This document shows, one piece after another, positions 18,364-55,249 of a DNA stretch of 64,000 bases. Position 1 is the stretch's first letter. Every line of letters starts with the position of its first letter. The notes under the pieces were generated by a model, which searched no databases, was not told where the DNA came from, and was given only the letters and a program-made list of their open reading frames with translations. The position numbers and the translations under genes are program-made. Origin of the DNA: Psilocybe cubensis (taxonomy: Eukaryota); assembly GCA_017499595.2 (NCBI GenBank), contig CM039004.1, positions 124,001-188,000 on the forward strand. The letters are read 5' to 3'.

Positions 18364-21300
18364 GGTACGAAGCAGTTTAGTTCTTGAAATTCTCCACAAA
18401 AAGACATTATAAGGGCCACAGGATTACTTGACGTCATGGGAGTATGTCACATGACAGCCCCTGTCGGGGACGTGCACATAATCGTCTATGCCAAGGTTTG
18501 TATGTCTACCTCGCATTACTGTGTGATATATAGTTATCATTAATGTACGTCTAGTAAGCTTTGGTTGGATACCAAGCAAACATGTAAAGCTACTTCACCT
18601 TCACAATAGCTTTAACTAGTTGATTAACTACAGCCCAGGCAAAAGTTACCCAGCTGCACGATAGACTCTTGGTGAGATATATACCTCTGGATATAGGAAA
18701 CAACTACTCTTTTATTTTGACTGTGTTCTGAGTCTGAGAGATAACAGAGTCGCAATTGAACCTGTATGTTTGATGCTGGCTTGATGATTTGATCCTGCAA
18801 TCGTGTGTGCAAGTCCACATTCACAAAAACCTCTTGTAATTCTGAGGGTAAATTAGGTATACATAATTTTATACCAAGTTGGTCAGTCAATATCCCGAAT
18901 CGAATCCAAAGCGCATTGCACTCAACCAGTTAAGAGGATGTAAGGTTCGGATAAATGGTAACCGAAAACGCACCGTAGCCCGGAGGGAATTGTCTTAATA
19001 AGCATCGCAGTCAGGTGATTATTATGCAGCCGGTCCGCTCATCCTTAACAACCGCGGCAATGAGCGGCGAGCGCTTTTACACCCGCGTTAGCCATCTTTT
19101 GTCCCAATTTTGTCCACGCTATTGAGCCCGAACTGAGCGCCAGCTGCTCATATCATTTGTGTAGTGTATCAATAAAAATTTGTACTGCAATTCAACTTGA
19201 GCATCCAGAAGACTTTCACAAACTCTACACGTTGGCTGAGTACTATGATGAGGTCCTGTCTACAATCGCCCGATTCAGCATGTCAAAGAGAGGTTTACTA
19301 AAGGCTTTAAACTAGTACCCGGAGTAATTACGAACAGGAGAGTGGACATATCGAAGAGACATGTAATGATTTGGTCACCCCTTTTTGGATTTTTGTGAGA
19401 GTGGCTTGATGGGCGAGAAGGCGAAACAGATCATTATTCCATTTATCAATGCCATAAGTATGTTATTTGCACTCCGCGTATGATCAATTTTCAAAAATTT
19501 TACTGTATGAACCTGGAGATAAGTGAAAAAGCAAGCACTCGGTCTTCGAAAATTCGTGATTTACATCTAAAGGTGCAGTCAAGAGTAGCATGCAAACAGA
19601 AGATAGGTCCGAAGATCCCATTGTGTCCATGAGATTACATCTGATTTACGTCCCTGACATGGACGCGCTCCCTCAGAAATTTTTTTCTATAACCCGGAAT
19701 CTTGGTAGAACCATTATTCACGATATCCATGGCCGGGTTACATGAATGGATTCAAATGAATCTCTAGGTTCCCATTTAGAAGAGAGTGACAGCTCACAGC
19801 GTAGCACCGTAGTCATTACCACCGGGCAGTGCCAAGTAACATCACATTGTAGAACAAGCAATATGAGGCGCATTTTGAGAGTATTCACCACACCGATACC
19901 ACGATAAGACCCTCAAATCTTCCCATTAAATTGTCTTGTCTAATTGAATTGAAAATTTAAATATATGTTGAGCTTAGTGGACATATAATTCTTCGGCATG
20001 TTTATAGCAACCTGCATACCACTAAGCAACTGCAGTGATACTTGGTATGGAGTAATTTAGGGCGCATTTACCTCGCCATCGATACCTTAATAAGAATAGA
20101 AGATAATCTATTCGATATCAAATGTTCTGAAATCAATTAGCCTATAAGGCCTTGTACTCGTGGCCGCGTGATAATAACGGCACATCCATACCGTGAAATA
20201 GAGCCACTAGAACCACTGCACACAGCACTGTAGAAGAAAGAATACTGCCCGAAATGCCACCCAGATGTCCTAGACCACTTCTTTCCTAGTAGGGAACCTC
20301 ACGACATGCTCATATGTTCGCGGGTGAATTTTTAGCCCTCTAGACCCCAGGCGAACAGATGACGAAGGAACGGACAAGGAGCCGCAGCGCGAATGAATAC
20401 ACACACCAAAAATAATGTCGATGTTTTGCTTCTGACTCGTCCCTGTGTGCCTGCCGAAGACCTCTCCTCAGATAGAATCTTCGTCATACCCTCCGCCAAG
20501 TCTCCGCGAAACGCACGCCTCGTACTCCTATCCCGATAATCCCAAAAATAAACCCTCCCTCCGCCTCAGCTTTTATCTCGCTCTCAAGATGTCAGCCACT
20601 TCTGTCCCCTTTGACCCGATTTGGAGTGGGCTGGAAGCAATAGCATCTACATCCCTGTCCAGAACCCCATAGTACGACGTGAGATTCCCGAACAAACACA
20701 ACACAGGATGCAGGGAAAAGCACATACACAGAGACAGCAATCGGGATTCTGGAGCACAGTCCACGGCTTACAGCCGAAATTCTGTTCTGTAAATAACTGC
20801 ATTCCTTGAATCTTCTCATGTTGGTGTTGATTGCAGGTGGTGATCACCCGTCTTATCTCGCATTGTACCATTCTTTTCTTCTCACAGACACACACACTTA
20901 TCCATTTGTTAAACATCGCCGTGAACCTCGCCACCTTCTCAACGGCATGAGGGAGTCACCAGCTCACTTTGACTCTGCCGGCCTTTTTGTGCATGGAGAA
21001 ATCGCCCTACTTTTTTGCTGGGCACAGATGCTCGCCCTCTCACCTGTACACTCAAGGACTGCGCAACGCCAAACGATCGTGCCTTTTGCAGAAACCTTTG
21101 CCTGTCCGTGTGAGTGTGCGTTCACGGACATCTAAGTCACATCTAGAAAACCGACCCTTGAGGCTTCCACTTCAAGTTCCAAGTCCCTCAAGCCAAGCAC
21201 ACCAAAAAGGCTCGGCACCACCACTCGGCGCAAGTGTCAGATTGGGAAGGTAGTAATGGCAGCGGCAGCAAAACCGCGCAGCACAGTTGTTTTCTTTTTT

Positions 21301-22913
21301 TTTTGTCCTCGCGGGCGTCTTCCCTGAATACATTTCTATTTGTCATACACCATATATTCCAATTTTACTTTCACGATTCGCGCCCAAAGCGCAAAAATTA
21401 ACCGCGGCTCTAACGCGCTATAGCCGCCTTTATCGTCATTGCCCGTCATCCATCCCGGTAAAAAAGTCGTAATCGTCTACCAAAGAAGGATAAACCGAAC
21501 GGTAATTCGTCGCTGGCGACTGTCGTGAGCAAATCAATCGACTGAGAGCATCCCTTCACGTCATCGCGTCAGCCACAGTGTTGTTTGTTGCCCGGACGGC
21601 CATTCTAGCCGGCTGAATGGATCATCTGAGTCTCCTCCAATGGACACTCCATCAAGCTCTGTGAATGAATCAACAATTCAATGGAGGGAGTACCGCCCCA
21701 TTCTCCCCGGGCAGAAGGGCCCTGCTCGCTCCTCAAGCTCCAGATTAACGAATCACTGACACACAATGATAAGATTCATCAGAAAGCCTGGATGCAACCG
21801 AGTACACCACTACGACCCACCACATGCAACACATCTCACTTGGCTCCGAGTACAAGACATGATACACGAAGCCAGAGCTGGGATATCCCGACGCATGCAA
21901 AGGGGTGTCGTGCGATCCCTTCCCTCGATTGCTGTGCGTGCACTGTCCGCTGTTCCAACAACGCGGATACACGGCGCCATTAGAGTTTCTATCCCACAGC
22001 GGGTGGGTACGAGGGGGGAGGTACATCACCAACAAACCGAGCAAGCATTCCATTTTTCAGTCTGATTAGCAATGGTGGGAAGCAGCGACCGCTCAAACGG
22101 TCCATGGCGGAGCGCAGTGCGAATTCTAGAATCGCCGGCGCATTGACACAGCTAGTGCCTTTCCTGCTCCGAATGAAGATTATTAAATCGCGACGTCGGT
22201 TGAAGCTTTGAGCTGTGTATTGTATTGTAGGACATAGCACATCCACATGTGCACACCTCTCATAGTGAGAGGTACGCCGGGTGTATCATTGACAATGACA
22301 CAATCTAGAAACCCGCTATGTACTGTATCCACCCATCAAAACAAACCAATTGAATAAATCCATGTACAAACCAACAAAAAGAAGTTGCAATATATTCATC
22401 AACGCGAACACTAACAGTACAAGTAGTCTAAAACGTTTTGCATTCTGGGAGGATAGGGATAGGAAGGTGATAAGATGGTTTGTAGATAGCAATGTAAATG
22501 TCATTCGACATGTCGGCAGTGCCGATCCAGAATGAGAACGTGAATTCATAGCCAAAATAGCAGCCGGGATAGTAACGAGTCAGAAGGCATGAAGGGATTC
22601 GGAGGGAGGGAGGGAGGGGGGGGGACAGATAGTCCAATGAAGCAGCAAAATTAAACACGAGACGAGACGAGACGAGCGATACACGACGCGAATACCATCC
22701 AAATCCAATAATCCACAAGAACCGAAACCGAAACCGAAACCGAAGCAAACAAAAAAAGGGGAAACGCAGACTAAAAACGCTACAGGCTGGACAGTGATAA
22801 TAGACGACTCGGTGTATAGGAGCGATGTAAAAAGAGATGATATAAAGACGCAGGCAGACAAACAACGACGGAAGATGGGGAGAAAAAAAAAAGAAAAGAA
22901 AGAAAAACCAGGA

Positions 22914-25230
22914 TCACCCATCCTTCAAGACATCCGACTTGATCCCAATCCTCCCAGTCAAGCTCGCAGGGGACGCCAAAATGCCTCCAGGCCCACTGAA
23001 CCCGCCCGAGTCCTCCTCAATCTTCGTATGCGCATGTTTCCCCACCCCACCTAGAACACCAACACCAATGCCCACAATACTATTCGACCTCCCGCGCTCA
23101 GCATGTTGTCCTCCACCGAATATATCCGATATACCACCACCCCCCCTATGCTCGCCACCGCGTTCCCACGATAACGCATCGCGCCCGCCTCCCACGTTTC
23201 CATTTCCATTGCCATTGTTGTTACTATTGTTATTGTTATTATTGTTACCAGAAAGAAAGTCGAGCCAGTTGCCCGAGCTGCTGCTGCCCCCCGGACCACC
23301 GAGCACCGACACCGACACAGGCGACGGTGCGGCCGCCGACGACGAGGAGAGGTGCGGTACTGGGAGAGAGGGAAGTGAACATTGCGATCAGTTAGATTCT
23401 GAAACTGGCGGTGAATATGTTGTGGCAATTGGTAAACATGTTTTTTTGTATGGTTGAGACAAGGGGGACGAAAGAGAAATACATCCATGACATTTTTTTT
23501 TGAATTTTGAGGTGATTGAGGACATGGACAGAGTCATGGACATGGAGGTGTGGAGGGGTGGCGTGGTAAATGCAAAGGGTTGGGGGGTAAAGCTAGGCAG
23601 GAGGCTTACCTGAGCTAGACGGCCCAGAGGGTCCGCCCGACGACCCGCCCCCACCACCGCTCGTGTTGTGCACCGGCCAGTCCAGCCCAACAAGACTCGG
23701 ACCGCCCCCCGAGTGGCTCTGGTGGCGGCTCTGCTCGTCCGCGTCCAAAAAAGCGGCGAACAGGTCCCCATTCCCCCCGCCGCTCCCGCCGGGGCCTGTA
23801 GACTGCGACGAGGTCGAAGACTGGTTGCGCAGTATGCCGGGGTAGAGATCGCTGCTGCGTGACGGGATGCCAAAGCCTGGTCCACCGCCGCCGCCGCCGC
23901 CGCCGCGCGACGAGGGACCGCGGGAGAAGTCTGACGAGGTCTGCAGAGGGATGAATGACGACGGGGGCGAGTTGTGTTGGCCAGAGACGGGGAAGAACGG
24001 CTGGTACTGCGGGCCGCCGCTATGGTGCCCGCCTCCCCCTCCCCCGCCGCCGCCGCCCCCACCACCGCCTGGGTGGTGCGGGCCCTGGGACGAGTGGTGG
24101 CCGTATTGCCCTGAGCGGGCGAAGGCGCCTGAGTTTTGTCCGGGGTAGTAGGGGTAGTTGCCGTTGCCAGAGTTGACGTCGTCCGAGGGAGAGCGGCTGT
24201 GGCCTAGATGGAGGCTCGGCCGCTGGCTGTTGCGCTTGTTGTCCCGCATGTCCATGCTGCGTGAGTCCGAGACGGGGAGGGTGGGTCGACCACCGCCGGT
24301 AGATTGAGAAGAAAGACCATGCAGCGAGAGAGGTGGTGGTTGCGCGATTGGAAGATTACGGTGTCCAGAGGAGTAATCGACCTGATACGGGCGTCAATGT
24401 CAGTGTCATGGCCGTTGGGGGAGAGGGGCATAGCCACGTACGTTGCCCGTAACCATGTCGCCGCCCGACTTCATCTTTCCGTCGTGCCTTCGCTTCCCAC
24501 GCGGGATATCGTCGTCGTCGTCGTCACCATCGTCGTCCTCGCCGATGTCGTCGAGCTTTGCGCTGTTGTTGCCCGAGAAATCCTGGGGCCCACGGGTGTC
24601 TTTCTCACCGTCGTGCTGGCAGATGGATTGATAAGGATCAGTGATAACGGGAAGAGTAAAGGTACACGCGTCAACATACCCTAAGATGCCTCTGGACGAT
24701 GTCGTGGATGTCGGCGCTCCCGTACTGGTAGAGCTTTACATGGTGTCCTGGTCGTTCCTCTTTTCGACGATAAAAATAGAACGAACGACAAGAGAATGCC
24801 AAGAATGAGACGAGGCAAACGGCGGTGCTAGAAGAGCAGACGCACCAAAGATGATGACGGCGACGTCGACGGAACAGAGAACGCCGAGCTCGTACGCCTT
24901 TTTGAAGAGGCCGTTCTTGCGCTGTTGAGCGGGGGGGCGGGAGGAGGAGGGCGGGATGGATGATGATAAGAATAATACGCCAAGCCAATTTAGCACAAAA
25001 ATAGCGACAAAAATATGGGACGCACCTTTAAAAAGGTGACAGAACGGTTTCGTTCGTGCTAAGTATAATTCGGGGTAAGCGAGTGGGCATAGGCGATGAG
25101 GAGGGCGTTGTATAATTGGAGGGGGATGAATGGGGAGGAGGAGGAGGAGCAGGGGGCCGATAATAGCCAACAAGAGGGACTGAAAAAAGCTCACCGTGAT
25201 GGGTTGTATTTCGATCTTTCTTCTGCCCAT
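22914..25230 (-). CDS. rlm1: MEF2-type MADS-box transcription factor (Rlm1/Smp1-like); about 7 exons
   Basis: Spliced N-terminus MGRRKIEIQPIT/HERNRSVTFLK/RKNGLFKKAYELGVLCSVDVAVIIF/EERPGHHVKLYQYGSADIHDIVQRHLR is a MADS box plus MEF2 segment starting at Met1. It is followed by acidic, poly-G and poly-N low-complexity regions ending ..SDVLKDG* at 22914. The symbol reflects family membership; orthology is not proven. Confidence 0.93.
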
Positions 25231-25599
25231 GTTGTGGGGAAAGCGAGGGTTTACAATCTCAACTTTCAAACACACCCCACTCTTTGAACCTTTGAACAAG
25301 CTTTACTCTAGTTTGTTTTCCATCACCCTCTCGGCACATCCCTGCCGCCCCCTCTCATTGGCCCCCGCCTCATGCCGTCTCTCTGCCGTGCCGAACTGCC
25401 GGAAATGGAAGCGGCGCTCCCACACCCACACAGCTAATGCTTCCGCTGATGTCGTCCTTTCCATCAGCCACTCGCCGCTTCTCCGCAGCAACTCTCTCGG
25501 ATCTCCTCCTCCTCCAGGGCAGCTCATCAACTATCACTCCAGCTGACGCCCGCCATCCTCGCCCCAGCAACACAACCACAGCTATGTCCTTGAAACCAT

Positions 25600-28500
25600 C
25601 CCGCCGCCCATAACCCGTGTAGCTTCTATCACCGAAGAAGCATTCATTCCTCTTTTTCACACACACAACTGACATGTCATCTCTGCACTCCTCTTGGCCC
25701 AATCCATACGATTTCATGTTTCTTTTCTCGCACTCTCGGGTCTGATGTCACTGTGCTATTTCCTCTCTCTCTCCTAGTCTCCCTCTCCTCCCCCTCTCAT
25801 ATCTCAGCTTGGCTTTGCACCTACCTCTCTGTATCATTTCACAGCTTGGCGGAATTCTCGGAGTGCCACTGGAAAAAATGTCAGATTGCCATATCATATG
25901 TTTCTCACTCCAACCCTGCACCAGAACTTAGATTCAGTTTTCGATTCGCGATAATGCACGCACGCGTCCTATCTATCTGGATCTGCCGTCGCTTTTTCTT
26001 GAGGCTTGAGTGCTTCCTTCCACCAGCTATCTATCTTCGGGCTAATGCTTTCTTCCGTATCAAAATCAAATCAAAACAAACAACAATCTACGTGTCAACA
26101 ACAAAAACAACAACAACAACATCGAACATCGAACCCTCCTTTTTGGTCCCCGCGGGATGCCAATATGAAGCAACAGCCAACGACATCATCGCGATTCGAA
26201 TCACCCATCACCGGCACCCATCACCAATCCTAATCCTGATCCTCACGGGGTATCCCAAACCATCCCAATCCCAACTCCCACCCTCCCATCCCATCCTCGG
26301 TTATATCGCTCGCAAAATGCCGCACTGTACGGTACGGTGCATTCACTGTTTATCTTACACATGTCTCATCTCCGCACCTGCACAGTGGGAAAAAACACAC
26401 AAAGCACGACGACGACAGCAACTACAACAACAGCAACAACATCCGGCACGTCATACTTTGATCTCGCTCAGGGGCTGCACTTTACATGCACCGTACATGC
26501 ACTGTGCATTATACATGTCATCCATCCACCCAATGCAATGCAATCCCGCGACCGTGGTCCCTAGTCCCTAGTCCGTGGTCCGTGGTCCGTCCTTATCTCC
26601 TTGTGAAATCCCACCTCATCCCATTTTCCATTTTCCATTTTCCGCTCCCGTTGCACCATCTCTTTCCCATACCCAAACTCAAACTCAACTCAAACCCAAA
26701 CCCAAACCAATACTCACGTCTACACTTCCTTCAACTTCCCCTGTCCCAGTCCCTCTTCTCCTGTCCTCCTCATCTCCCCGACAGCAACTACAACTGCAAC
26801 TACGATATGGACTGCGTCCGCACCACGTTTCTACGGAGTCTATACGGATACCCTCATCTCCTCTATACTCCGAGAACACGCAACGCGCAATAGGGCTGTC
26901 ATTCTCAATGCTCAATGCGTATCATGTCTGATGTCCAGCGGTCCAGATTCCGGCCACACACAACGCGCAACGCACAACGGGACCGCACTCTATCTCTCCT
27001 CCTTACACTCAACCTCTTCTCCGCTGCACGATTTCGAATCCCTTAGCAGCGTCATACCATTTTGTGCTGTCTATGTAACATTATAGTATCCTATGTCTGG
27101 TATCTTTCATCTGGTATCTGGTATCGTAAGTCCAGTACCATGCATAGGCTCAGGCCCCGGGCCTCATTTCCCATTTCCCACTTCCCATTTCCCAGTGCAC
27201 AGTTCACAAGTCCCAGGTCCCTCCCAGGTCCCAGGTCCCATGACACCTTCCACCTCACTTGACTTGACTTCCCGAAATCTACTAACTCCTCTATACATCT
27301 GCGCAGCTCTCCCTCTCCTCTTCTCCTCACCTCCTTTCCTCCACTACTGCTACCGTTAACGTTAACGTTAACGTTAACGCTACCAAATCACAGAACAGAA
27401 CTCACAGGCGCGGTCCCGACTACTACGTCCGCTCCTTCGTCCTCGCCCTCGGCCTCTCGCCCTCGGTTCCTCGCCCTCAATCCCACGTGCGACTAAAAGG
27501 TCCTACGTATACGTTCCGATTCACCGCCTTTCAGAATCGTAGTCATAGTCGTAGGACAATCAGTATGATTATGACTGTTTTATCTTTTATCTTTTATCAG
27601 GTATGCTCTAGGTATGTGCTAGGTATCAGCCAACTCGGCACAGGGAACGGGGAACAGGGAACACAATTCGGCACAGGTGCAATCCTAACCCAATCCCAAC
27701 CTAATTCTCAACCCAATCCCATCCCATCCCAACCCGATCCCAATCCCGATCCCATCTCATCTCATCTCCTGAACCCATCTCCTCATCTCCTGAATCCATC
27801 TCCTGAACCCATCTCACACCTCTCCTCTCCTCTCCTCTCCTCCTCCCATCCCATCCCAATGCACTCCCACCATTCCGAAATCATCACAGATCACACCACA
27901 TTACAATCAATCACATCACATCACATCATATCATATCGTTTGTATCTGGTGAGTATGTATTACCTTTTGCAGTATAGTGAGTAAGTAAGTCTCTATGTCT
28001 ATGCCTGTATGCCTGTAGAGTATAGGAAAAGAGGAAACAGAGGACTGGGAATGGAGGACTGGGAATGGGGAACAGGGAATGGGGAATGGGGAATGGGAAC
28101 ATGGCACAGGGCACAGAAAACAGGAAACAGGGAATGGGGAACAGGGAACAAGGTACCGAGCGTACCGACCGTATATCGTTGTGCGGGACTGGGATATTAT
28201 GTTAGTTGGTATGTTATGTTATGTTATGTTATGTGTAGGTGTAGGTAGAGTGAAATGTAATGTAACATCTGCACCTCGCGGTGCTTCATGTGTGTAGTAA
28301 TTGTAATTGCAATAAAGTGTGTTGTGTCTATTAGTCTGACTCTTAGCGTTGCTATCTCCAGCGTCCAATGATAACATAACATAAACTCCAACACAAAACA
28401 ACCCGAACCGCGGTTACATTCATACTGAAACTATACCCAATCCGGCCTTTTCAAAATCGAAATCTAAATAGAAAGAGAAATCAAAAGAGAATTCGAAAGT

Positions 28501-32372: not shown

Positions 32373-35300
32373 TTACAGACGATGGAAAATAGGGATCCTA
32401 TACAGTCAATCTCTATATAGAGCCCAGGTGCCTATTTTCTTTTTGATTACTGTCGCACACTGAACAGTATCAAATATACTGGGCATGCCAATACATCAAT
32501 CCCTTGAATATCCAGTCTTTCATCCTAATGGATCAATTCTATGGGGAATACGTTCATCACTTGTACAGTATTTTCGTTTCATGAAGTCGTATAAGCGCCC
32601 ACTATATCTGATTGATTCTGTACATTGGTTCTAATTTTTTCAGGCTATTCTTACATTCATTGCCTCACTGACGCTCCCCTACATCGCATTTATACTTTGT
32701 TTCGGCGTACAGTAGTGGGTCAGTATAAAAGTATGGCATAGGGTTCAAATCGGACTTACAATCCGAACCTAAACTTCAATATTCAACAAGGGATCTTTAC
32801 AAATGGGAGTAGGTCTCCATATACTCAGACATGTTAAATTCAATTACTGTCAAACAATAGTATTGTCACTTCTACCTCCTGCAACCTGTAGCCTTACAAT
32901 CGAGATATAGAATATAGAAGGTCGCATAAATGGCAATTTACTGTTCTGTCATGTTTCCAAAAACCCCACCCCCGAATAATACGTATCGTAGACTAATCAC
33001 TGGGACACCTACACTCTTTCTGTTATGACTAGTGCTTCCGCGCTGATCGAAAGGGTGCTAAGTAAATTATTCGGTCCTAGGTTTATCCATGTACATATTT
33101 TATCTTCAAGAAGGGTATCGATGAAAGACAGGGGAATAGGATAGCTATAGAGTTTATTCAACCAGCAGGGCAGGACATTCGGCAGCGCAATTCGAAGCTA
33201 TACCGTCTGGGCAGGAAGTGACGGGTTTATAATCACCCTAAATTACTATGTCCGATACCTCCAAGAGATCTAGCGTTCCTTAGAGCTACCAACGTTTGTC
33301 CTGACTGTACCCTATCTAGACACCCTGGATGCCTGCCACGTACGCGAGTTATTTTTGGGTTGGATGAACAAGGTTTCGTCTACTTGCACTTTCAGAAGAC
33401 CTGAGATTGGAAAGACCTTATGAGATTGTCAAATAGATGAAGTGGTGATTGTGAGCCTTCGGAATAGTACCTGTGTAAAAATGTCCCTATAGATACATCA
33501 GAACTTACAGTGGTTGAAAACTGTTGTTCAAGTTCAATGTTATGTCGGCGCTGTTGGTTAACATTATATTCTAAACATAGGGCAGGGAAAGTTCTCCGTC
33601 TTCCAGCGGCAGATAATCTGGGATTACTGCCGGATTAGGGACATTTCTAGCGGATTTCAAAGGTTCTTCCCAACAACAACTTGCCGATTTGATGCCGAAG
33701 GGCAGAAGGTCCACAGAGGCAATGTCATTCATTGGACAGTGAAGGTCCATTAGCTCGTGGGACGCAGTGGACACATCGGGGAAAGGGACTGGAGATGGAA
33801 CATCACTCTAGAACCACAAACAAATGCAGACAAAGCAGATGCCGCTATTACACCGGCATTGTAGGGGAAGTCAAAGTATCGCATAGTCGACTCTTTTGAT
33901 ATTTTGAGTGCAAGAACATATTTGTTATTGCATATGGGTCCCTCCGCACTCATAGATAGAACTGATAGTGTTGAATTTGAATTATATAGAAAATAGAATA
34001 GCTGGATTAACAACAGAACGAGAGTTTCGCGGGAAATATATATAGAAGAAAGACTAAATAATGCTTTATTTACGACCTTTCTCGACGGAAATAATGCAAT
34101 ACCGTGATATTGACGTATTCCTCCCTTGATTCTTTCATGATAACTTTGAGATGGCTAAATGAAACATTAATGCCATTGGGTGGTAGTAGGGCATGCGATT
34201 GGCCCAATTTTAGCTCGGATATTCGATCCTTAAGCCCCGCTTAATACTTGCCGTAGTCACTGGTCGGAAACATCAGCTTAACCATGTGTGGGTAGCATGA
34301 TGGACTGAATTCTTTCCCAAGAAATTTGTCAGAACGAACAAATATCGGGTACAGAGCGGAATGGACTTCCCGTGATTGGTGAAAAGGAAGGCTATCGCCT
34401 TCCAGCTCGAAGCTTAGGGCGTGTGGGTGAATTGCATCCAAAGTAATTCCATTGCTCAGCTGATATTGAATAATGCCGTCACCTTGACATCTTTCTTCCA
34501 TGCGTTGGGGTGACTGATGCGACGGTGGTTTCATAACAAGAGACCGAAAAGGAAACAATATTCTCAAGCACAACGACATGGATTGGTAATGGTTTCCGGC
34601 AATGTCGCTCTTGTTTACCCTATTCCCGTTTCCGCCTATCAACTCTCTGAGGTTGGGCGGAGTATTGCCACTTCCTGTTCACCCAGCTCGCGCGTAGTAC
34701 AGATGTAAATTGACACAACACACTAGTGGCAGCATCCACAACCATTGATCTTATCAGTCATAGTGTAGTGTTCCAAACTTTTCTAAATACGTGAGTTGAG
34801 AGTACTGCGGAATTCCCTGTGGCAGGTAAAGCTAGAGAAGTTATCCACGGTGTTTGTTAATCCATCCGGTTATGGAACACTGCTATCCTGAATCTTAATC
34901 TATATAGTCACCGTTTACACAACGGCCTCACGGTTGCAATACTGTATTATCTGAATCAAATTAAAGCTCTCTAGCATACATCTTGGATCTCACCAACACT
35001 CATTTTGCTGTGGATTAGTCTACGACTTGTTCAACCCCTGAACCATTCTCGTACGGTGGTATTACTCTCCGCGTTGGTGGTCGCGTCTTGGGACGCGTCA
35101 TCACGTGTAGTACCATCAATCCCGATCGGCCGAAATGCCGAACAGGGTTCCGTACTTGCAGGAATGCGCACATACCACATACGCCAAGCACACCCTTTAC
35201 TTTTTTAACACAACTTTTGTTAGCAGCTTCATGAAGATCTCAAAATTATCTCAGATTTCAAGGCCGTAATTGAGGGCAAGAGTGAACAAGTCTAATGATA

Positions 35301-35663
35301 GTTTAATGTTGAGCTGCGTGCCATATCCTTGTGAAACCTTGTACTCAAGTAGCAAAGACACGCAATGTTTTCCCCCTAACAAACCCAAACAAAACCATCA
35401 CAAGGATAATCGCAGACATCCTGTATCTATCTTTCGTCAGTTTGAGGATTCCAGCTGTGGCAGTGCGTTCTGTTTCGCATATCATACATATTTATGTTTT
35501 CCAGACAGTTAATTCTTACTATGTAGACATTCTGAAACCTTAAAGTTGAATTATCTCTTGCCACTTCATCAAAAAAGTATCCATGAGCACGAAGATACCA
35601 ACATTCAAAACAGACTCGCACCTTTGAGGAATCATCCACGAAACATGCGCTAGAGAAGCTGGC

Positions 35664-35755
35664 TTCTCTGATGATCACTATCTGCAAATTGCAGATTGTG
35701 ATCATCAGAGAACATGTCTACCACCAATTGTAGACTGCAATTGGTGGTAGACATG
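35664..35755. repeat. Two abutting near-perfect palindromes (24-bp and 21-bp arms); probable hairpin-type transposon excision footprint
   Basis: 35664-35687 and 35689-35712 are inverted about A35688 with 1 mismatch. 35713-35733 and 35735-35755 are inverted about A35734 with 1 mismatch. There is no spacer between the two palindromes. Confidence 0.9.
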
Positions 35756-36091
35756 ATTTACCTTTCTCAATGCGTGCTAATGAATGCAGTGCTTTTAATC
35801 GTGCCAACAACAAAGACTAATAAAATGTTAACGGCAATCAAAGAATTCATAAGAGTGTACTCTCAGAAGCCAATGTCTGGCCTTTTGATTGTACCAATGG
35901 TTCCATAGTCACGGCGCAGCTTGCCGCCATGATTTTATCAAAGAAGTGATGTCGGCATAGACATTTCCTTAGATACCTCGATGAGGTTTTCTCTGATGTA
36001 ACGATGCCAATGATACTATTGTACTTGGTTGTACTAATATATAGGCGGAATGTTTGAAAAGCTTTTATACATTCAAATCCTCCAGGACGGA

Positions 36092-37197
36092 ATGTCTAGT
36101 CATACAAACGTGGTCATTATCACACCGCAGGTCGAAAGAAAAATCATATCTGACAATCTCAATTCGGACATGATAGGCAGTGTTCTCATGGGTAAGAACT
36201 TACTAGGTTCATAAAGATATTAAACTTATTGAAATTTGTCTTAGGGGCATACTCTTTGCTCTATGGGTATACTATGTATCTATATAGTGTGTAAACTAGC
36301 TTATACTCTACAGCACTTACCAAGCTTCCCTTTGCAGTTTATAAGAAGCGAGCCAACAAAAACAAATTCATTATTATACCTCTGATATCTATGCTCTACT
36401 TCCTTTCATGGTTTTTCTTTTTCAGTGGATGGATAACTCTGGACTTGGAATTAACAAGGGATACTGCTGGAAGCCTTGAAACAATGGAGATAGTTGCTTC
36501 GACGTTGCACTTCATGGTAATTCTGATTGTGGATATATTAATGGTGAGTCTGGTGTACACAGCGGAGATCTTTAAATTTAATTACAACTACATACGAGCA
36601 GATATGGATGGATAATCATCCCATTGGTTTTGTTTGGTGCTGAATGTGGTGGGTTGGACACAATGGTCTTGATTGTGCTTCAATTGACAATGACGTCGAG
36701 TCGTTTAGGCCTCTATCTTGCACACCTAATTTTCCGGTTCAAGTTTGGCGCAGCTTCCAATCCATCCATAACAGACACCATCAATGACATCAATGGATCC
36801 CTCATGTTCATATCAGTCACAACGACATCCTTGTGCTCCTTTCTCATAGGCTATAGAATACACATTGTATCAAAGGAGCACTATCTACCCGCCGCTTCCA
36901 AAAAAATGTTCAACCACATTATTCTGATAATCATCGAATCAGCAGCCATTTCTTCCGTATGCCTTTTGGCGATAGCTATTAGCGGGGTTCTTCCAGGAGT
37001 GGGCCAAAAGCAAACTGTCCAATACACGTTGTCAGTTTATACGTTGCAATTTATCATTATCTCAGCTGTAAGTCTTCCCTATTACCTTTACAACTTTCTA
37101 TTTCAGTAACAATCCGGTGAGGAATTAGGGCATGTCACCAACTATCATGGTCGCGAGAGTCGCTATAGCACAGGAAAACAGCTTTGGTCCTCATTGA
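36092..37197 (+). pseudogene. Multi-pass membrane protein paralogous to 1302-2498, with a frameshifting deletion in exon 4
   Basis: MSSHTNVVIITPQVERKIISDNLNSDMIGSVLMG/AYSLLYGYTMYLY/..VDILM/exon 4/..FLIGYRIHIVS..IIIESAAI../GMSPTIMVARVAIAQENSFGPH*. Exon 4 (36602-36648) is 47 nt versus 79 nt in the paralog, lacks the RCxxxW motif and reaches TGA in frame. Confidence 0.7.
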
Positions 37198-38266: not shown

Positions 38267-38722
38267 AGTGGTTTACACAATGAACTGTTGGTCGTCAGCG
38301 AAGAAAGACGCGTGTTCGCTTTGCTCACCCCACGGCGCGTAGGCGACGGGTCATAAAGCTCGTGGGAAGAAGGAAGAGAAAGGTGCACAGACAATTACCA
38401 AATACTGACCGGCACATAGGTATGCCGAGTAAAAGACTTCCGACACTCCTACTCACGCAAAATAATCTCCTGTAAATAGTTCATATCTTATTACATTACA
38501 CTGGTGAACATAAAGTTATTCAGACGTGACAAATCCATTATTTACTGCCCTAAGGCATCCGGTCCATGTTCATGGGGTGTTTGCGGTCCTGGGTCAGATC
38601 ACTCGTCAAAGATGCCGGAGAATGCTTGGTGTTTGTCTGGGAACCTCACCACATACTTTATGAGTTTTTCTGAACATCCGGTGTGCCTGGTATTTGTGTG
38701 TGGGAGTGTATAGGGGAGAGTG

Positions 38723-40915
38723 TATGGCTGTCCGTTTGCACATTTAATACCAATCTATAAACTTTTTGTTCCATACATAGAAATCTCAGAAGTAAGGCTC
38801 CGATAAGTATTTGCTCTTATTTCCGCGGATAGAAAAGAGATTGCCGAACATATAGATCCAGTGTCCATACATTTACAGGTTGCACCATCAGATACAACTT
38901 TGAGTACCATACATATGGTTTTGGTGCCCACATATACAAAGCACAATCCCTTGGAGAGTTCAAACACACCCTTTCATACATATTTTTCTTCCTCACATAT
39001 GTTTGCAGGTTCCCCGTATGAGTGATTTGACCTTTCTTTTGCCTTTCTTCCTCCCGAAGATATATAGTCGTTTTTCGGCATGTGCCTATGCCGTGCTTGC
39101 TGGACATCGTGAGAATTCGGCAAATATCGGCAAATGAGGAGACAAATAACAGTACATTGCCTGTTCCTGTCAACACACACTAATTGAGCAATGAAAAAAG
39201 ATTCACATATCTGATAGAAGTGGTTATCTGTCTGTATTAAGCCTGATTACGAAAGTATCACGTCTCTATAGCTTTTGACGAGTATTTTAGCCACTCCTAG
39301 TCACCGTGCTAAGGCCTAAAGTTGAGATTGCGGGTAAAACTCTGCAATGGATTTCACTTTATAGCCTACACACACGTTTTCACTGCTCAAGAGTATAAAT
39401 TAATACTTCTAAAGAGTTTTCTAACCTTGCAAAGGTCGTCCTACATCCTTTACAAGTAGCAATTCCACTGCAAAGCGGGACGAAAGCTGAGTTCCCACAC
39501 TTGTACGGCAAGGACGGCACGCATGATATTCATCTTGACAACTCTATATCTTCGGGCAAAAGTTGAGGTATTATGCGGGGAGTATGGCTGTCCGTTTGCA
39601 CATTTAATGCCAATATATAAGTTTCTTTCCCCTTACATATATGTGTAGGGAGTAAGTGGTCCAATATATACATCATATGATATCCGCAGACAGTCAGCAA
39701 GTTACCGAACATAAAGATTCCCAATCCACATATTCAAATGTTGTGCCCTCAGATGAAACATTGAGTACCATACATATAGTTTTGGTGCCCACATATATAA
39801 GTTACAGTCCCTTACATAGGAAACCCACGCCCTTTCATAAATGTTTTGTACCCTTACACATATCTTACAGGCTCCGTGTATTGTTGATTTTACATATCAC
39901 CGTCCCAAAGAGATGAAGGCATTTTTCGGCATTTTTCTATGCCGTGTCAGCCTGGACATCGTGAGAATTCGGCAAATGTCGGCCATCGACAAGACACATC
40001 TCAGCACATTACCGTGTTTAAGTCAACACACGCTGAGTGAGCAAAAACAAAGTCTTCATACGTACTATTGAAGCATGCATGTATGCTTACTAGAAATGTA
40101 TTACGTCTTTCTGGTTGGAGCCAAGAATTCACCATTACTGAAGCCTAGCCGGTGTGCTAGGTTTAAATAAGCGTGCAGTTGATGATATAAGTGATAAAGT
40201 GCAATAATTCTATTTACAATCTGTTATACAAAACACCTGCAGTAATCACGACACACTTTTAAGACTTTGAATGAAATCTAATATCCATCCTAGCTTCTCA
40301 ACGAGTATCAATTCACTGCAAAGCGGGATGCAAAACGAATTCCCACGCGCCTCCGGCAAGGACGGCACGTGTGATAGTCTTCTCGACGACTCTATATCTG
40401 CGGAAGAAAGTTTATATAAATGCGGAAGGAGTTAGAAAGAGGGATACTGGCCTTTTTATATATGGGTGAGCTACCTCTATGCTCGTACCTCCCATTAAAA
40501 CTTAAGGGCATGTAAGTTCAATGACTGGGATGGTTTCTTCCATGCTGGGAATCCATCTGTCTATGACCGGGACACCGAAGTATGTCTTCGGAACCGTGTA
40601 GAATTATGACTTATATGTAAGGGGAAAAAAACTTATATATTGGTATTAAATGTGCAAACGGACAGCCATAGGGGAGGGTCTTAGAGTGTGGTGCTACGTT
40701 TTGGATGTTCGCTTTACCTACTTCTATGTGTGTACCCCCATTCAAACTGGAGGGCATGCAAAAACAATGACCGGGATGGTTTCCTCTATGTTCGGAAACC
40801 ATCTGTCTATAACCGCGACACCAAAGAATGTATTTGGAATTATATTCAATTATGACTTATATGTATGGGACAAGAAGTTTATATATTGGTATAAATGTGC
40901 AAACGGACAGCCATA
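38723..40915. mobile_element. Non-autonomous TIR DNA transposon (outer copy; about 1099 bp without the nested insert), IS3EU-like ends
   Basis: About 56-bp imperfect TIRs beginning TATGGCTGTCCGTTTGCACATTTA. 6-bp TSD AGAGTG at 38717-38722 and 40916-40921. No transposase ORF. Confidence 0.9.
39583..40670. mobile_element. Non-autonomous TIR DNA transposon (inner copy, 1088 bp) nested in a relative from its own family
   Basis: About 59-bp TIRs with 2 mismatches beginning TATGGCTGTCCGTTTGCACATTTAAT. 6-bp TSD GGGGAG at 39577-39582 and 40671-40676. The body is colinear with the outer copy (shared CTGGACATCGTGAGAATTCGGCAAAT, CACTGCAAAGCGGGA, CGGCAAGGACGGCACG and CCATCTGTCTAT). Confidence 0.92.
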
Positions 40916-41085: not shown

Positions 41086-41831
41086 TATGACACGATTTTC
41101 CGTTGAAAATGCGAAGTGTCTGGCTTGAGATTTTGGTCACTACAAAAATAGCAAGGTTAGAACGTACGTAAATCGGTGTCAGGTTTCATAATGAACTACT
41201 TGGTCGTTAGTGCATACACCCTGAGTCGAACAACATACTTTGGTGTGGTTGTACTGCGCCCTAGGCATACTTTAGTATCAGATGGTTTTCTTGTAAGTAA
41301 TGTAGTACTACCCGGATTACATGAACATATATACCAAGTCTAATTCCCTTTCACAAAACCGTTGTAATCATTTCTCAAATTTCTTCGTTTCCAACTTATT
41401 CCGGCTGCTTCGGCTTTGAAATAATTCGTATAGATGTACCGGAAACACCCACAGCAAGACATATACTGTGTTATTATGCTTTGCCGTGGATAGGCCAATA
41501 TAAAATCAGTTTAATGTACAATTTTCTGGAATTATTTTGCCCTTAAATATCTGTTGAAATACCTGCTTTAGGGAAGCCATCTTCAGAGATACCACCCTAA
41601 GGCAATACCAACATGTACACTGTTGGTTTTGATCAAACCACGACTTGACCACGGCTTTACCACGACACGAGATTAAATTTCCCACGGTCTGTGCTAATTT
41701 TATCAGAATCCTGGGTAATAGGCTGTTCGCACACTCAAAATGTAAGTACTACAACGTAAGAAAAGGTCCGAAACTAGTGAGTACAACTCCATTTCTGAGT
41801 GTTCGCATTTTCAACGGAAAATCGTGTCATA
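41086..41831. mobile_element. Second-family non-autonomous TIR element (746 bp), IS3EU-like ends
   Basis: Perfect 30-bp TIR TATGACACGATTTTCCGTTGAAAATGCGAA at 41086-41115 and 41802-41831. 6-bp TSD TCAACG at 41080-41085 and 41832-41837. Confidence 0.92.
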
Positions 41832-46999: not shown

Positions 47000-49900
47000 A
47001 ATGTGAGAAGCCGCAAACACCATGGAAACTTGCAGTTTAGAATTAGAAATAGAAATAACATGAAGAGACAAATACAGTCGAAAATAGATTTAATTTTATG
47101 TTCATAACAAGCGAAAAAAAGGACCGATGCAGAGCAGGCGTGTTATTTCTAATTCTATTCTGATCATCGCTGCGAATCGTGATGCGGATGGGTAAACATT
47201 CGGATCTATGTTTAAATAATTGCCTCAAACGTCAATCCACAGGGGCGATATAGGGTACATCCCAGTACACCCATTCGTAGTCGTACACCTCCTAACTGCA
47301 AAGACAAACTTCTTAGTAAGACCTAGAGGGACATGCACCGTCTACTCGGACTGAAATACATGTCATGAACATGAAATGATGAATGGGGATGCCGAGGCAA
47401 GGAGAAGCATAGAAATTAGAGTAGACAGATGGTATCACGTACATACCAACAAAACACAAGACCCCCCTCCCCTCTCCCTGCCAAGTTCGACAAAACGTCA
47501 TAACATTAATTTTATTTTAATCTGCTATCGCAGACATAAAATGTATGTTTTCCATGTCACACTCGGCAAACTCCAATAGCACCCCTCTTGGTATATGTAA
47601 CCTTTGCAAGTTACATAAGTTACAACTCCTTGAACCTTCCCAAAAAAACATACGCTTTTGACAATGACATATGTCGGTATCGCCATCTCCCGGTCCTTCC
47701 TGCAAATTTGTCAAACCGAATAAGCCACTGACGGCATAACCCTATAATCCCACTCAATTATCAATACCATATGTGAGAAAGAACACACAAGACGGAGGCA
47801 TAATCTCCGCCATGCCTTGCGTACCGTTCAATTTCTCATGTTTCTTGTGCGGCTGTTCAGGTCTTGGTATGATCTTATGGTGTGGCGTTTTTTTGTTGGC
47901 GTTCTCGTCTGATGTGATTCGAGTAACACGCAGTAAAGGGGGGGTTGTCATATGTTTGTTGTTAGTGAGTGTATTAACGACATACGGATTACGGATATCT
48001 TGGGTGGGGTGAGGAGAAGAAGGGTTATATTTCTTCCTGGGCGGTGGGTGCAACAGCACGTATTCACTAGGGCTTATCACAATTTACCTGACCGCTCGGA
48101 GATTATATACACAGACTGCGAAAACCGTACGAATTTATACTCTACCTTGTCATTGTCACCTCCAACCGAAACCTAAACCTAAACGTATGTCCAGGACATC
48201 GCCGAGGATCCATTCATCGACATAAAAAAATCAATGATACATACTAACTGCACAGCAAAACAACTGCCCCGCGGCGCACACTGACACTATCACGGCCAAT
48301 CCCATCGTATCGAAATAAACATAGGCATAAACATAAACATAGACATGGACATGGACACGGAGACAGCGCCATAGATATCGCAGCCGAACAGGATCCAAGA
48401 ACAAGCACTGTATGCATAACACAAACAAATCTCCAAATCTCCAAATTTACAAAAACCAAAAAAGATAGATCGAATACCACGACCATAATCCAGGCATAAT
48501 TCCAGAGTCCAGAATATCCTGGACCCGACTCGAGTTGAAAAACAACATGAAGCGAAGCAAAGTAAAATAAATAAAATAAAAACCGCAGGTTGAAAGGACA
48601 GATGGGATGTTTATAATACATCGGATTGTGGGTACGGGGACACATGGAATGGCCGTCTGTATCTCAATCACAATGTTCTTCGACCTCGAGACACACGGGT
48701 GTGGGTACGAAGGTACATGATCATGAGTTACTGCTAGTCTAATGCCAATGTAACCGTTGCTATATGCTGTATACTATACTAAGAGTAAGAGAAACTGACA
48801 ACGAAAAAGAGACACGCGGAATGGCGTTGGTAGATGCGATGGCGATGGGATGGCGAGTGGAGGAGACTGGAGAGTATATTATAAATGTTGATGGTATGAT
48901 ATCTATCAAGCAAACGGCGATCTTTTAATTGATGTTTTTCTGTTACACTGAGAGGTGCGGATCTGGTGATATACGATACGATGCGATGCGATGCTCTGTG
49001 AGAATTAGAGTGCGCGATGCGAGGAGTACGGGTACGGGTCCCGGAAAGCATCAGGACAGGACCAGGACAGGATGGTACAGTAAAGAAAGATGACACAGCG
49101 GAACTGCGAGACGTCGTCTGCTGTCGTCCCACGAAAAACAAAAACCCGCCCATGGGCCATGTAGCAATGAAAATTCCACTACGAAATGGACACAACGAAA
49201 AAGAAACGATTGGATGGTGGGCATGACAAACAACAAAAAATTCTTGATAATGTAGATATAGATACTACATGAAGAGTGGATATGGATATGGATATGGATG
49301 CGATATGATACGATATGGATATGTATACGATACGTCGTCCGCGCCTCCCTCGCCTCGTGCAATCTATCAGACTCTATCTCTATCTATAAACGCAGAAGGA
49401 GGAGGGGATGGAGGGAAAGGGAAAAGGAAAAAGAAAAAGAAAAAGAAAAAGAAAAGGATGGGAGGGGTGGAGGTGGGGTGGACTACAATGACAATGACAA
49501 TATAATGAAGATAACAGCGACAACGACAATGTCTAATGTCCAATGTGAAGCGTGAAGCATGATGCAGAAAAGCATAAAAAACACAAGAGAATACACGAGA
49601 TGCGAGAGATGTGTTGGATGGGATGCTAGAGATGAGATGAGATGAGATGTGATGAGATGACATGCAAAAAAAGCAACAGCCAGCAACCACAGCAACGACG
49701 AGAATGGGAAGCATGGAATGGAATGGAACACGATACAGCAAAGCAAAGCAACGAACCACAAAAAAAAGAAAAAGTCAAGAAATAAACCAGGCGACAACAA
49801 CACCCAAGGCCCAAGAAAAAAAAAAGCGAAGAGAAGATGTCGTTCTCGGCGCAGACAGCGAGCAGCGAGATCTGGACGACCAGTGGCGCACCCCCCACCG

Positions 49901-52900
49901 CACCGCACCTTCCACCAACCCCAACCCCCTCAAACGCAACCCAACTCACCCAACTCAAACTCAAACAGCCCTAACCCAACCCAACCAGCCCTAACTCAAC
50001 TCAAACAGCCCTAACAACATCCCCCTCAAACCCAACCAACCCCCTCTCCCTCATCCCGCCCACCGCACGCGCAACCTCGCCCGTATCAAACTCCTCATGC
50101 TTATCAGGCGGCATCGCGGCGTTGAGGTAGGCCAGGAGCGCGGAGATCGTGAGGTCGTCCGTGCGCTCATAGGTTGTGTTGAGGAGGTGGGCGATGGAGA
50201 GGGATATGAACGCGTTTCTGGGTGAGGGTGAGGGTGAGGGACAGGGGTGAGGGGGGAGGGGAGGAGGGAGGGAAGAGGAGTTAGTAAATGTGTTTTTCGC
50301 ATTTTAGACACGCCGAATAAAATTAAAAACACCCCAAAAGAAAATAAAGCAAGAACCGGAGGTCGTCTATGACGATGTATACCATATCGTATCATATGCA
50401 CAATATACAACCCATCCTCCATCTCTCTCTCTCTCTCTCGAAGAAAAAAAAAACAGAGCTTGGAAAAAAGAAAGCGACTCACCTCCCCGCAGGAGAATCT
50501 AAATCCGCAAGCCCAGGCGGAACAGCGAACGGCCAGCCTCCTCCCGCTCCTGCATCCCCGCGTCTTCCACCAGCGCGCCTCCTCCCTCCACCCGCACCCG
50601 TCCCAGCACCACCAGAATCTCGAACGCTCTCACCGTGCACCCCCACGCCCATATTCATACCCACACCCATGCTGATGCTCATACTATCACCACCGCCAGC
50701 GCCGATACCAGCGCCGATACCAGCGCCAGGTCCAGCAGCAGCACCACCGTCCTCGAAATCGTCATACTCATCGTCGTCAGCCCACGGCGGACGCGCGATA
50801 CCAAGGTGCGCGTGTACATCTCGATATCCGTGTCCTTGACTGTGTGCATGACCATGTCCGTGTCCGTGTCCGTGTGCGTCTCTGTACCCATGCCCGTTCG
50901 CACTTACACCGGCACCAGAGCGCGAGCCGGGTCTCGAAGCGGACGAGGAGGACGACGCTGTATGGCCTTGCCCATGCCCATGTCCGTGCGCATAAGAGTA
51001 GGAATGAGAGTGGGAATGAGAATGAGAGTGCGAATGGGACGGTGCAGTGCGGAACGCGGGGCCCAGTGTGTACCTCCCCTGCGTGCTTCCCTGTGCGTGG
51101 CCCTGTGTGTGTGTATAGGCGTGTTGATGCGTTTCGCGCGCGTACGCGTGCCCATTACCATGACTATTTCCATGTCCATGCGCATGTCCATGTCCTGAAG
51201 CGTGTGACGAAGACCCACCGCGCGCGCGGCCGCTTGTAACATCACGCTCACGCTCGCGGTCGCGCTGCGATTGAGATTGAGATTGGGAATGCGACTGAGA
51301 CTGAGATTGGGAGTATAAAGACGGCGAGGGCATAAGCGACGCATACGGGTTCGCGTTCGAACTCGCGTTTGCATACATCGAATTCCTGCGTCCCTGTCCC
51401 TGTCCCTGACCCTGCTGCGAACCACCCGCACCCGCACCCGCACCGGCAGACGCAGGAAGAGGAGGAGGATGAGAATGAGGCGAAAGCCCACGCGGGGCAT
51501 TCGCATTATACCCCGCCGCAGTCGCCGCCGCCTCTGCGTCCTCAGCTGTATCCATTATACCGCGGTCGTGGTAATATGCAGGCGATCCTGGTGCGGATGC
51601 TTTGTGTTTCGCTTTCAGTTTAGGTTGAGGTTTACCCGTAGCCGGCGTACTGTTACCTTTCTTCGTCGTGGAGGTAGAGGTAGAAGTAGTATTCGAGCTC
51701 GCGGTAACTTGCTTCTTAAGCACCGCCTTCCTCGTCGTCGATGCCGACGTCGACGTCGAGGACGACCCGCCGGCGGTAGAATTGCCGACTTTGTTAAGCT
51801 TGGGAGATGGAGATGTAGGCGTTTCGCGGGTGATAGGGTTTCCCTCTGCGTCAACCTCAACCTCAACCTCAACTTCAACCTCAGCTTCACCTTCGACCTC
51901 GGGCTCGCCGTCCGCATCTGCATCTGCATCACCGTCGGCGTCGGCGTCGTTTGCGTCGTCGCCCTCGACGTTGGATTTGTCCGCGTTGGGTTCAGCTTCA
52001 GCTTCAGCTTCGCCGTCGGCGTCGGCGTCGCCCTCTGTCATCTCAACGTCCGCTTCCACATCGCCCTCGCCCTCAGCATCCTCGCGATCAGAAACCAACT
52101 CGTCTTCGCCTTCATCCTCCTCATCCTCATCCCGCTCATCCTCTCCATCCCCATCCCCATCACCATCCCCATCCTGCTCATCTTCAGACACTTCCTCCCT
52201 GGCACGACCTCCCATACGCATGCGCATGCGCGTACCAGCCTCGTCCTCCATATCAACGTCCCCATCTCCATCTCCATCCCCATCCACATCCATCATCCGC
52301 GAAGCGCCATACCGACCCGCCTTCGCCTTCACCTTCGCCTTATACCCGCCCTGCTCTCTTTGCTGACTCTGCAAATGCACCTGAAACCGATACTCCTGCT
52401 CTTCCCCAATCTCCAGCTCAAGATCGTGCTCGCGCTGTTGTTGCAGCATCATCTCATACTGCTCTTTGGGAGTGAGTCGGAGTTTTTTCTTGGGCTGGGT
52501 GTGTTGGGCTTGAGCGTGTGGGAGGTGGGATGAGGGCGGGTGTGTGTGCGCGTGGATGGGTGCGTGGGTGGAGGAGTAGGTGTGGGCGTTGAACGACGCT
52601 TGCCCCTGCCCCTGCCCCTGCATATTTCCATGTCCATGTCCATGTCCATGTCCTTGTCCTTGTCGACGCGAGCTGGACGCGGCACCGGACACAGAAGCGG
52701 AAGCGGAAGCAGAGGCGGAGGCGGAAGCGGAAGCTTGCATCTGCGTCATCTTTTCATGACGGCGTTCGCTGTGTTGTGTGGTGTATCAGCATCGCGAGTC
52801 GGTAGGTCGGTAGATTGGTGGGGTGAGCAGACGGGGTGTAGCGCAGGAGATGGGATATAGCGGGTAGAGGGGGGTAGAGAAAAAGATAATGAGAAAGAGG

Positions 52901-55214: not shown

Positions 55215-55249
<35 letters not shown>

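Follow-up and report, generated by a model that had tools for sequence, protein, structure and literature searches.

An abutting double palindrome in Psilocybe cubensis, probably the scar of a hairpin-type transposon excision

The window, that is, the whole 64-kb stretch of DNA analysed here, carries at 35664-35755 two near-perfect palindromes that abut directly, with 0 bases between them, in the order X, A, X', Y', A, Y. Judged from its sequence, this double palindrome would have been left where a cut-and-paste DNA transposon of hAT-type chemistry excised and the donor site was repaired, a reading to which we give a probability of roughly 0.6. That it is a hairpin-type excision scar, left by a transposon of whatever family, can be held with good confidence. 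The excision-scar reading is well supported by the internal logic of the structure and by precedent, whereas the assignment to hAT is likely but unproven. In kind, the structure is a long, clean, natural example of a scar type that is already known.

Structure of the double palindrome

An earlier note had described two abutting palindromes with arms of 24 and 21 nt, single-base apices and no spacer. Direct inspection gave the same layout and the same lengths, together with one mismatch in each arm pair that had gone unmentioned. The parts are listed below with the roles they would have in an excision scar.

35664-35687, plus strand: outer arm X, 24 nt; original left flank
35688, plus strand: left apex A; complementary to the T at position 8 of the duplication and unpaired at the tip of the left flank hairpin
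35689-35712, plus strand: inner arm X', a 24-nt P-nucleotide tract, the opposite-strand copy of the left flank; mismatch at 35697
35713-35733, plus strand: inner arm Y', a 21-nt palindromic tract from the right flank; mismatch at 35731
35734, plus strand: right apex A; complementary to the T at position 1 of the duplication
35735-35755, plus strand: outer arm Y, 21 nt; original right flank

The two outer arms share their inner ends. X ends with TCTGCAA (35681-35687), which corresponds to positions 1-7 of the putative 8-bp target duplication and is followed by the A at 35688; Y starts with CTGCAAT (35735-35741), corresponding to positions 2-8, and is preceded by the A at 35734. Both ends, with their apices (35681-35688 and 35734-35741), are as the earlier note had given them. 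The mismatches are T:T between 35679 and 35697 in the left palindrome and T:G between 35731 and 35737 in the right one. At 35731, a T in a CpA context stands in place of the expected C, and this mismatch is attributable to the inner arm, since the outer arm matches the other copy of the duplication. The junction GAA|CATG between X' and Y' cannot be shifted, that is, it is without microhomology.

In a scan of the whole window (loops of 0-8, at most one mismatch, arms of at least 12), the two halves of the structure ranked first and second in length, by a wide margin, among the short-loop palindromes of the 64 kb. The runners-up were a 16-nt arm within a CGTTAA tandem repeat at 27351 and then one of 13 nt. 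When the 121 nt of 35650-35770 were folded as single-stranded DNA, the energy was -44.5 kcal/mol, compared with -11.8 +/- 2.5 kcal/mol for shuffles of the same stretch (z = -13.25; 0 of 200 shuffles folded as well).

It should be mentioned that a small pre-existing inverted repeat, AGAGAA-GCTGGC-TTCTCT, lies at 35652-35669, to the left of the scar, and that its right half coincides with the first 6 nt of X. The border between loop and stem of this repeat is where the left nick site (35663/35664) falls; this position may be a coincidence.

Agreement with hairpin excision

Target duplications (TSDs) of 8 bp are a hallmark of hAT elements in the accessible text of PMC10368747 and PMC4763223. Ac/Ds footprints are described, in the accessible part of PMC5873905, as deletions accompanied by P-nucleotide palindromes that are centred on the base complementary to the one that adjoins the transposon. 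The rule was coded such that the left outer arm ends with duplication positions 1 to k-1 and its apex is the complement of position k, and such that, on the right side, the apex is the complement of position 1 and the outer arm begins with positions 2 to k. Over TSD lengths of k = 2-15, only k = 8, with TCTGCAAT as the duplication, agreed at all 8 constrained bases (6/6 internal bases and both apices). By our own calculation, the chance of such a fit is approximately 14 x 4^-8 = 2e-4. The TSD of Transib is 5 bp, and k = 5 failed this fit. Hairpin offsets of 2-3 nt combined with longer duplications were worked through by hand, and at least one base failed in each. With the apices left free, the only duplication length that fitted was k = 6, CTGCAA, the sequence common to the outer arms.

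An excision simulated from the window coordinates, with an 8-bp TSD, a 1-nt offset into the flank, and, on the 5'-terminated strand of each end, nicks placed 24 nt (left) and 21 nt (right) from the tip, regenerated 139 of the 141 bases of 35640-35780; the misses were 35697 and 35731. The three other combinations of nick strands under the 8-bp model gave extra mismatches at one or both apices. The odd centres of the palindromes fit a hairpin with a 1-nt offset and not a flush hairpin of the Muta1 type; the single-base centre of both palindromes is not the even axis, with the full duplication kept at the tip, that is expected of a flush hairpin as formed in the MULE, Transib and RAG systems. TCTGCAAT agrees with the Hermes target pattern nTnnnnAn, as it appears in the accessible text of PMC10368747, at one of the two specified positions (A at 7, with C at 2); the pattern is a weak preference and no rule.

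In the history proposed for the site, the element would have inserted into ...CACTA-TCTGCAAT-TGGTGG... and generated the 8-bp target duplication. Upon excision, the transposase would nick the 5' strand on each side, one base inside the flank, and cap each chromosomal end as a covalent hairpin, so that the unpaired tip of each hairpin would be complementary to the duplication base carried off with the element. Both hairpins would then be nicked on the 5'-terminated strand far from the tip, at 24 and 21 nt, where the usual distance is ~2 nt. The unfolded ends would be made double-stranded and joined without loss or microhomology, placing X-A-X' beside Y'-A-Y. How two long self-complementary 3' tails would be joined bluntly, with zero microhomology, is not well described, and this counts against the hAT-type reading.

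We infer the element family, the joining route and a nuclease that was Mre11-complex-like rather than Pso2/Artemis-like. According to the accessible part of PMC3299998, hairpins are opened by Pso2 and Artemis at 2 nt from the apex; in yeast, most Ac/Ds hairpins are repaired with Pso2 and a minority without it. In the accessible part of PMC5795779, the cut made by MRX-Sae2 lies on the 5'-terminated strand, some way in from a blocked end. The opening considered here resembles MRX-Sae2 activity more, because the apex letters require 5'-strand cuts 21-24 nt from both tips.

Occurrence in strains and raw reads

An 801-nt stretch was present in nine public runs from three studies. Four of the nine were compared over 35200-36200, namely the contigs X6, X8 and X9 (other organism label) and the raw paired Illumina reads X11, which together represent 3 studies. 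The double palindrome was in 4/4 of these runs and showed no indel. It is fixed in the strains sampled, as expected if the event is no younger than their common ancestor.

The earlier note had named an assembly or chimera artefact as a danger to be checked at the level of reads, and chimeric reads can indeed produce palindromes. However, the three independent strain assemblies and the raw 151-nt reads of X11 (202 aligned) cross the double palindrome cleanly, without joints or loose ends, and the depth of X11 over the palindromes is even, at ~27-38 reads. An artefact of assembly or library is therefore hardly conceivable and is regarded as already refuted.

Relative to the window, the strains have 3-7 listed differences per 1001 nt (0.3-0.7%). 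The sole difference within the structure is 35670 G>T in X9, which breaks a pair and is uncompensated. The earlier note had expected an empty or a filled allele to appear across strains. Neither was found among the four runs compared, which are 0.3-0.7% diverged and all carry the scar. Metagenome scans with the 24-nt outer arm X and with a 22-nt stretch of the right flank gave 0 matches each.

The two arm mismatches and the uncompensated change at 35670 fit neutral decay, and in its present state the scar looks like non-coding DNA that decays slowly and neutrally. The 2 mismatches in 45 pairs suggest a divergence of ~2% per site since the event, provided that both arose after it; with two events only, the range of this estimate is wide.

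Transposable elements in the window

The earlier note had suggested a search for hAT transposases. Within the 64-kb window, the 275 ORFs (18 + 121 + 136) scanned against Pfam yielded no transposase domain, of hAT or any other type. The last of these sets consists of 136 of the 162 ORFs of 50-89 aa within 28-50 kb and covers about 29.7-48.5 kb; the window has 443 ORFs of this size, 281 of them elsewhere. A combined scan for TIRs and TSDs gave no TIR element with a 7-, 8- or 9-bp TSD in the window. The sole DNA transposons found there have 6-bp TSDs and TATG...CATA ends and lie 3-6 kb from the scar.

38723-40915: TIR element, TSD AGAGTG; contains the nested element 39583-40670
39583-40670: nested TIR element, TSD GGGGAG; inside 38723-40915
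41086-41831: TIR element of 746 bp, TIRs of 57 nt, TSD TCAACG; TATG...CATA ends

These are three 6-bp-TSD insertions within 3.1 kb. The elements at 38723-40915 and 39583-40670 are diverged copies (~71-82% identity) of a ~1.1-kb non-autonomous TIR element, one inserted in the other. They have identical termini, TATGGCTGTCCGTTTGCACA, and TIRs of ~62 nt, and the ORFs of this ~1.1-kb element gave no Pfam match. The element at 41086-41831 resembles the nested pair in its ends and differs from it in its interior.

Other scars of the same kind were also looked for, as had been proposed, by scanning for further abutting palindrome pairs with 8-bp complemented apices. The window holds 8 abutting pairs with perfect arms, and 0 of the 8 carry the k = 8 signature; the scan used perfect arms, so it cannot re-find 35664-35755 itself. 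Simple 16-nt footprints numbered 2 in the window, compared with 1.19 per shuffle, and both lie in low-complexity DNA.

Taken together with the strain comparison, the claim of a hAT excision scar stands in its sequence logic (only k = 8 fits, and 139/141 bases are simulated), while the allele, the transposase and an 8-bp-TSD element were not found in the material searched, and the assignment to a family is not unique.

Genes around the site

The 30-48 kb part of the window is gene-poor, and all six reading frames around the site are closed by stops. Pfam's own score cut-offs were reached only by HET and SRF-TF among the scanned ORFs; weak sub-threshold matches to TrAA12, Serglycin and GSPE_N1E were disregarded.

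5158-6810, plus strand: HET-domain ORF, 550 aa; above the Pfam cut-off
24739-25302, minus strand: SRF-TF (SRF-type MADS box); above the Pfam cut-off
35430-35717, minus strand: ORF of 96 aa that overlaps the left palindrome; no Pfam match

Relatives of the 96-aa ORF were sought among 1.84 billion representatives. Both of the 2 matches were rejected, since they are explained by repeats inside unrelated proteins, one being a Listeria-Bacteroides repeat protein from bacteria. For the nearest sizeable ORF (36582-37106, plus strand, 175 aa), sequence searches gave no relatives.

These results bear on an intron that had been proposed in the earlier note, where removal of the extra bases turned a minus-strand GT..AG segment from 112 nt into one of 59 nt. 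The arithmetic is right (92 - 39 = 53; 112 - 53 = 59). The intron itself has no gene support: the frames are closed, and the 96-aa ORF is without true relatives or a Pfam match.

Several other features of the surroundings were observed. A stretch of 33 nt from the HET ORF (5829-5861) has a second occurrence at 38556-38588, with 85% identity, immediately left of the nested TIR elements. The regions 20000-28000 and 49000-59000 are GC-rich blocks (0.50-0.59, compared with 0.40-0.45 elsewhere) in which tandem repeats of short period (5-30) are dense and both strands carry long open frames; they gave no Pfam match except the SRF-type MADS box at 24739-25302 (minus strand). A 68-nt inverted repeat with 74% complementarity (16165-16232 and 47333-47400) has its arms 31 kb apart and brackets the gene-poor region of the scar.

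Alternative origins

The main rival draws on the neighbouring elements. The scar would come from an excised member of the TATG...CATA, long-TIR family with 6-bp TSDs, the duplication being CTGCAA and each tip carrying one base of the terminal T:A pair. Because the tips would hold the terminal base of the element, this implies a flank-hairpin chemistry that is offset one base into the element. The free-apex fit, which gives only k = 6, favours such an origin, as do the three elements of this kind 3-6 kb away and a window without any 8-bp-TSD element. An element ending in T...A could supply both central A's, and the simulation fitted as well as that of the hAT model, with 2 mismatches. That simulation, however, needs unlike nicks, on the 5'-terminated strand at one side and on the 3'-terminated strand at the other. 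A variant that leaves the 3'-terminal base of the element with the flank would be expected to shorten the element at every jump, and no description of a hairpin geometry reaching one base into the element was found in the sources consulted. In addition, the T on each side of CTGCAA, on which the 8-bp hAT reading depends, would be a 1-in-4 coincidence (our calculation, with either nick polarity allowed). On balance we consider an origin from this family unlikely.

An origin without any transposon is a further alternative. A double-strand break of another kind might have been followed by fold-back (snap-back) synthesis or template switching at both ends, so as to give two inverted duplications. 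Snap-back synthesis at break ends makes inverted templated insertions, as described in the accessible part of PMC5728401, and the putative ancestral site contains the short palindromes TGCA and CAATTG. But the same 6-8 bp are kept at both ends, which would need a break with an 8-bp stagger, and the palindromes reach a single central base, whereas priming by snap-back would be expected to leave a loop. Self-pairing of CAATTG, worked by hand, would shift the centres and give an even axis. Moreover, the insert is X' followed by Y' and not the reverse complement of the site, and three switches would be needed. We regard such a break as quite improbable. The two very stable stems of 21-24 bp could also suggest a selected structure, such as a small-RNA precursor or a protein-binding cruciform, or else a tiny foldback mobile element. 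Against this, Rfam gave no match over 35300-36100 at E up to 1, each stem is already mismatched, and 35670 G>T breaks a pair without compensation; a curated structured RNA was rejected on these grounds. The 92-nt unit has no flanking direct repeat (its flanks are ...GGC and ATT...) and no second copy within the window, where the surrounding 1.8 kb is also single, and a miniature foldback element or MITE was likewise rejected. Selection or foldback mobility seems very improbable as the origin.

A further proposal keeps the transposon and concerns how its hairpins were opened. The scar may record a second hairpin-opening route, in which both hairpins were cut on the 5'-terminated strand, some two helical turns away from the tip, with the signature of Mre11 and Sae2/CtIP and not of Pso2/Artemis, and were joined bluntly; in a bolder variant, the element came from the neighbouring 6-bp-TSD family. 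This is put forward tentatively and is considered unlikely.

Comparison with known systems

If the double palindrome is read as the donor site of a hAT-type element, its closest counterparts are the Ac/Ds footprints of S. cerevisiae, Arabidopsis and C. albicans, which, as far as the accessible sources describe them, also keep the 8-bp duplication on both sides and carry P-nucleotide palindromes centred on the complemented base. Unlike those footprints, the present one has long arms (24 and 21 nt) on both sides at once, no loss of ends and a joint without microhomology. It also differs from the experimental Ac/Ds revertants in being a natural scar that is fixed in several strains and known here without its element. 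The earlier note had called the arms much longer than the usual footprints of a few nt. This was overstated: the accessible part of PMC5873905 gives a maximum of 20 nt for Ac/Ds palindrome arms in S. cerevisiae (citing Lazarow 2012), versus 3 nt in C. albicans. Against these figures, the 24- and 21-nt arms reach or slightly exceed the known Ac/Ds range and are of the same known kind. The literature searches made here found no natural fixed excision footprint with arms >20 nt.

The coding joints of V(D)J recombination are similar in that a hairpin-capped end is opened off-centre and yields palindromic additions (PMC5499845 and PMC3299998, in their accessible parts). They differ in that RAG hairpins are flush, with an even axis and no complemented base, and in that the site is marked by signal sequences and not by TSDs. 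In repair-deficient cells, very long P tracts occur in V(D)J joints. Among fungal elements, a likeness exists to Ascot-1 of Ascobolus immersus, reportedly described by Colot et al. in 1998 as a Ds-like element whose footprints suggested hairpin intermediates.

The MULE Muta1 likewise forms hairpins on the flanking DNA, with TSDs of 8-9 bp, and to this extent it resembles the system considered here (accessible part of PMC5499845). Its hairpin, however, is flush, at 43 + 43 = 86 nt, and predicts an even palindrome and intact ends of the duplication. In yeast, according to the same part of that source, >90% of Muta1 excisions are precise.

Implications

Excision scars are the only lasting trace of departed DNA transposons at a site. 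A scar that retains both full hairpin stems reveals the length of the duplication, the one-base offset of the cut, and the position and strand at which the host opened the hairpins. The present scar leaves the known understanding of the mechanism unchanged. Found in nature and with arms of 24 and 21 nt on its two sides, it indicates that the opening far from the tip, known from yeast assays, also occurs and becomes fixed in a wild fungus.

If the second opening route is true, a class of such double palindromes should be recognisable across the genome of this fungus. Every such event would make two perfect hairpins of 20-25 bp at once, and these would be possible seeds of small-RNA loci or foldback elements. 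If the variant with the 6-bp-TSD family is true, the geometry of flank-hairpin cleavage would be new to any transposase. For genomes from which the elements have gone, two abutting odd palindromes with an 8-bp overlap and complemented ends provide a search pattern for dating past hAT-type activity.
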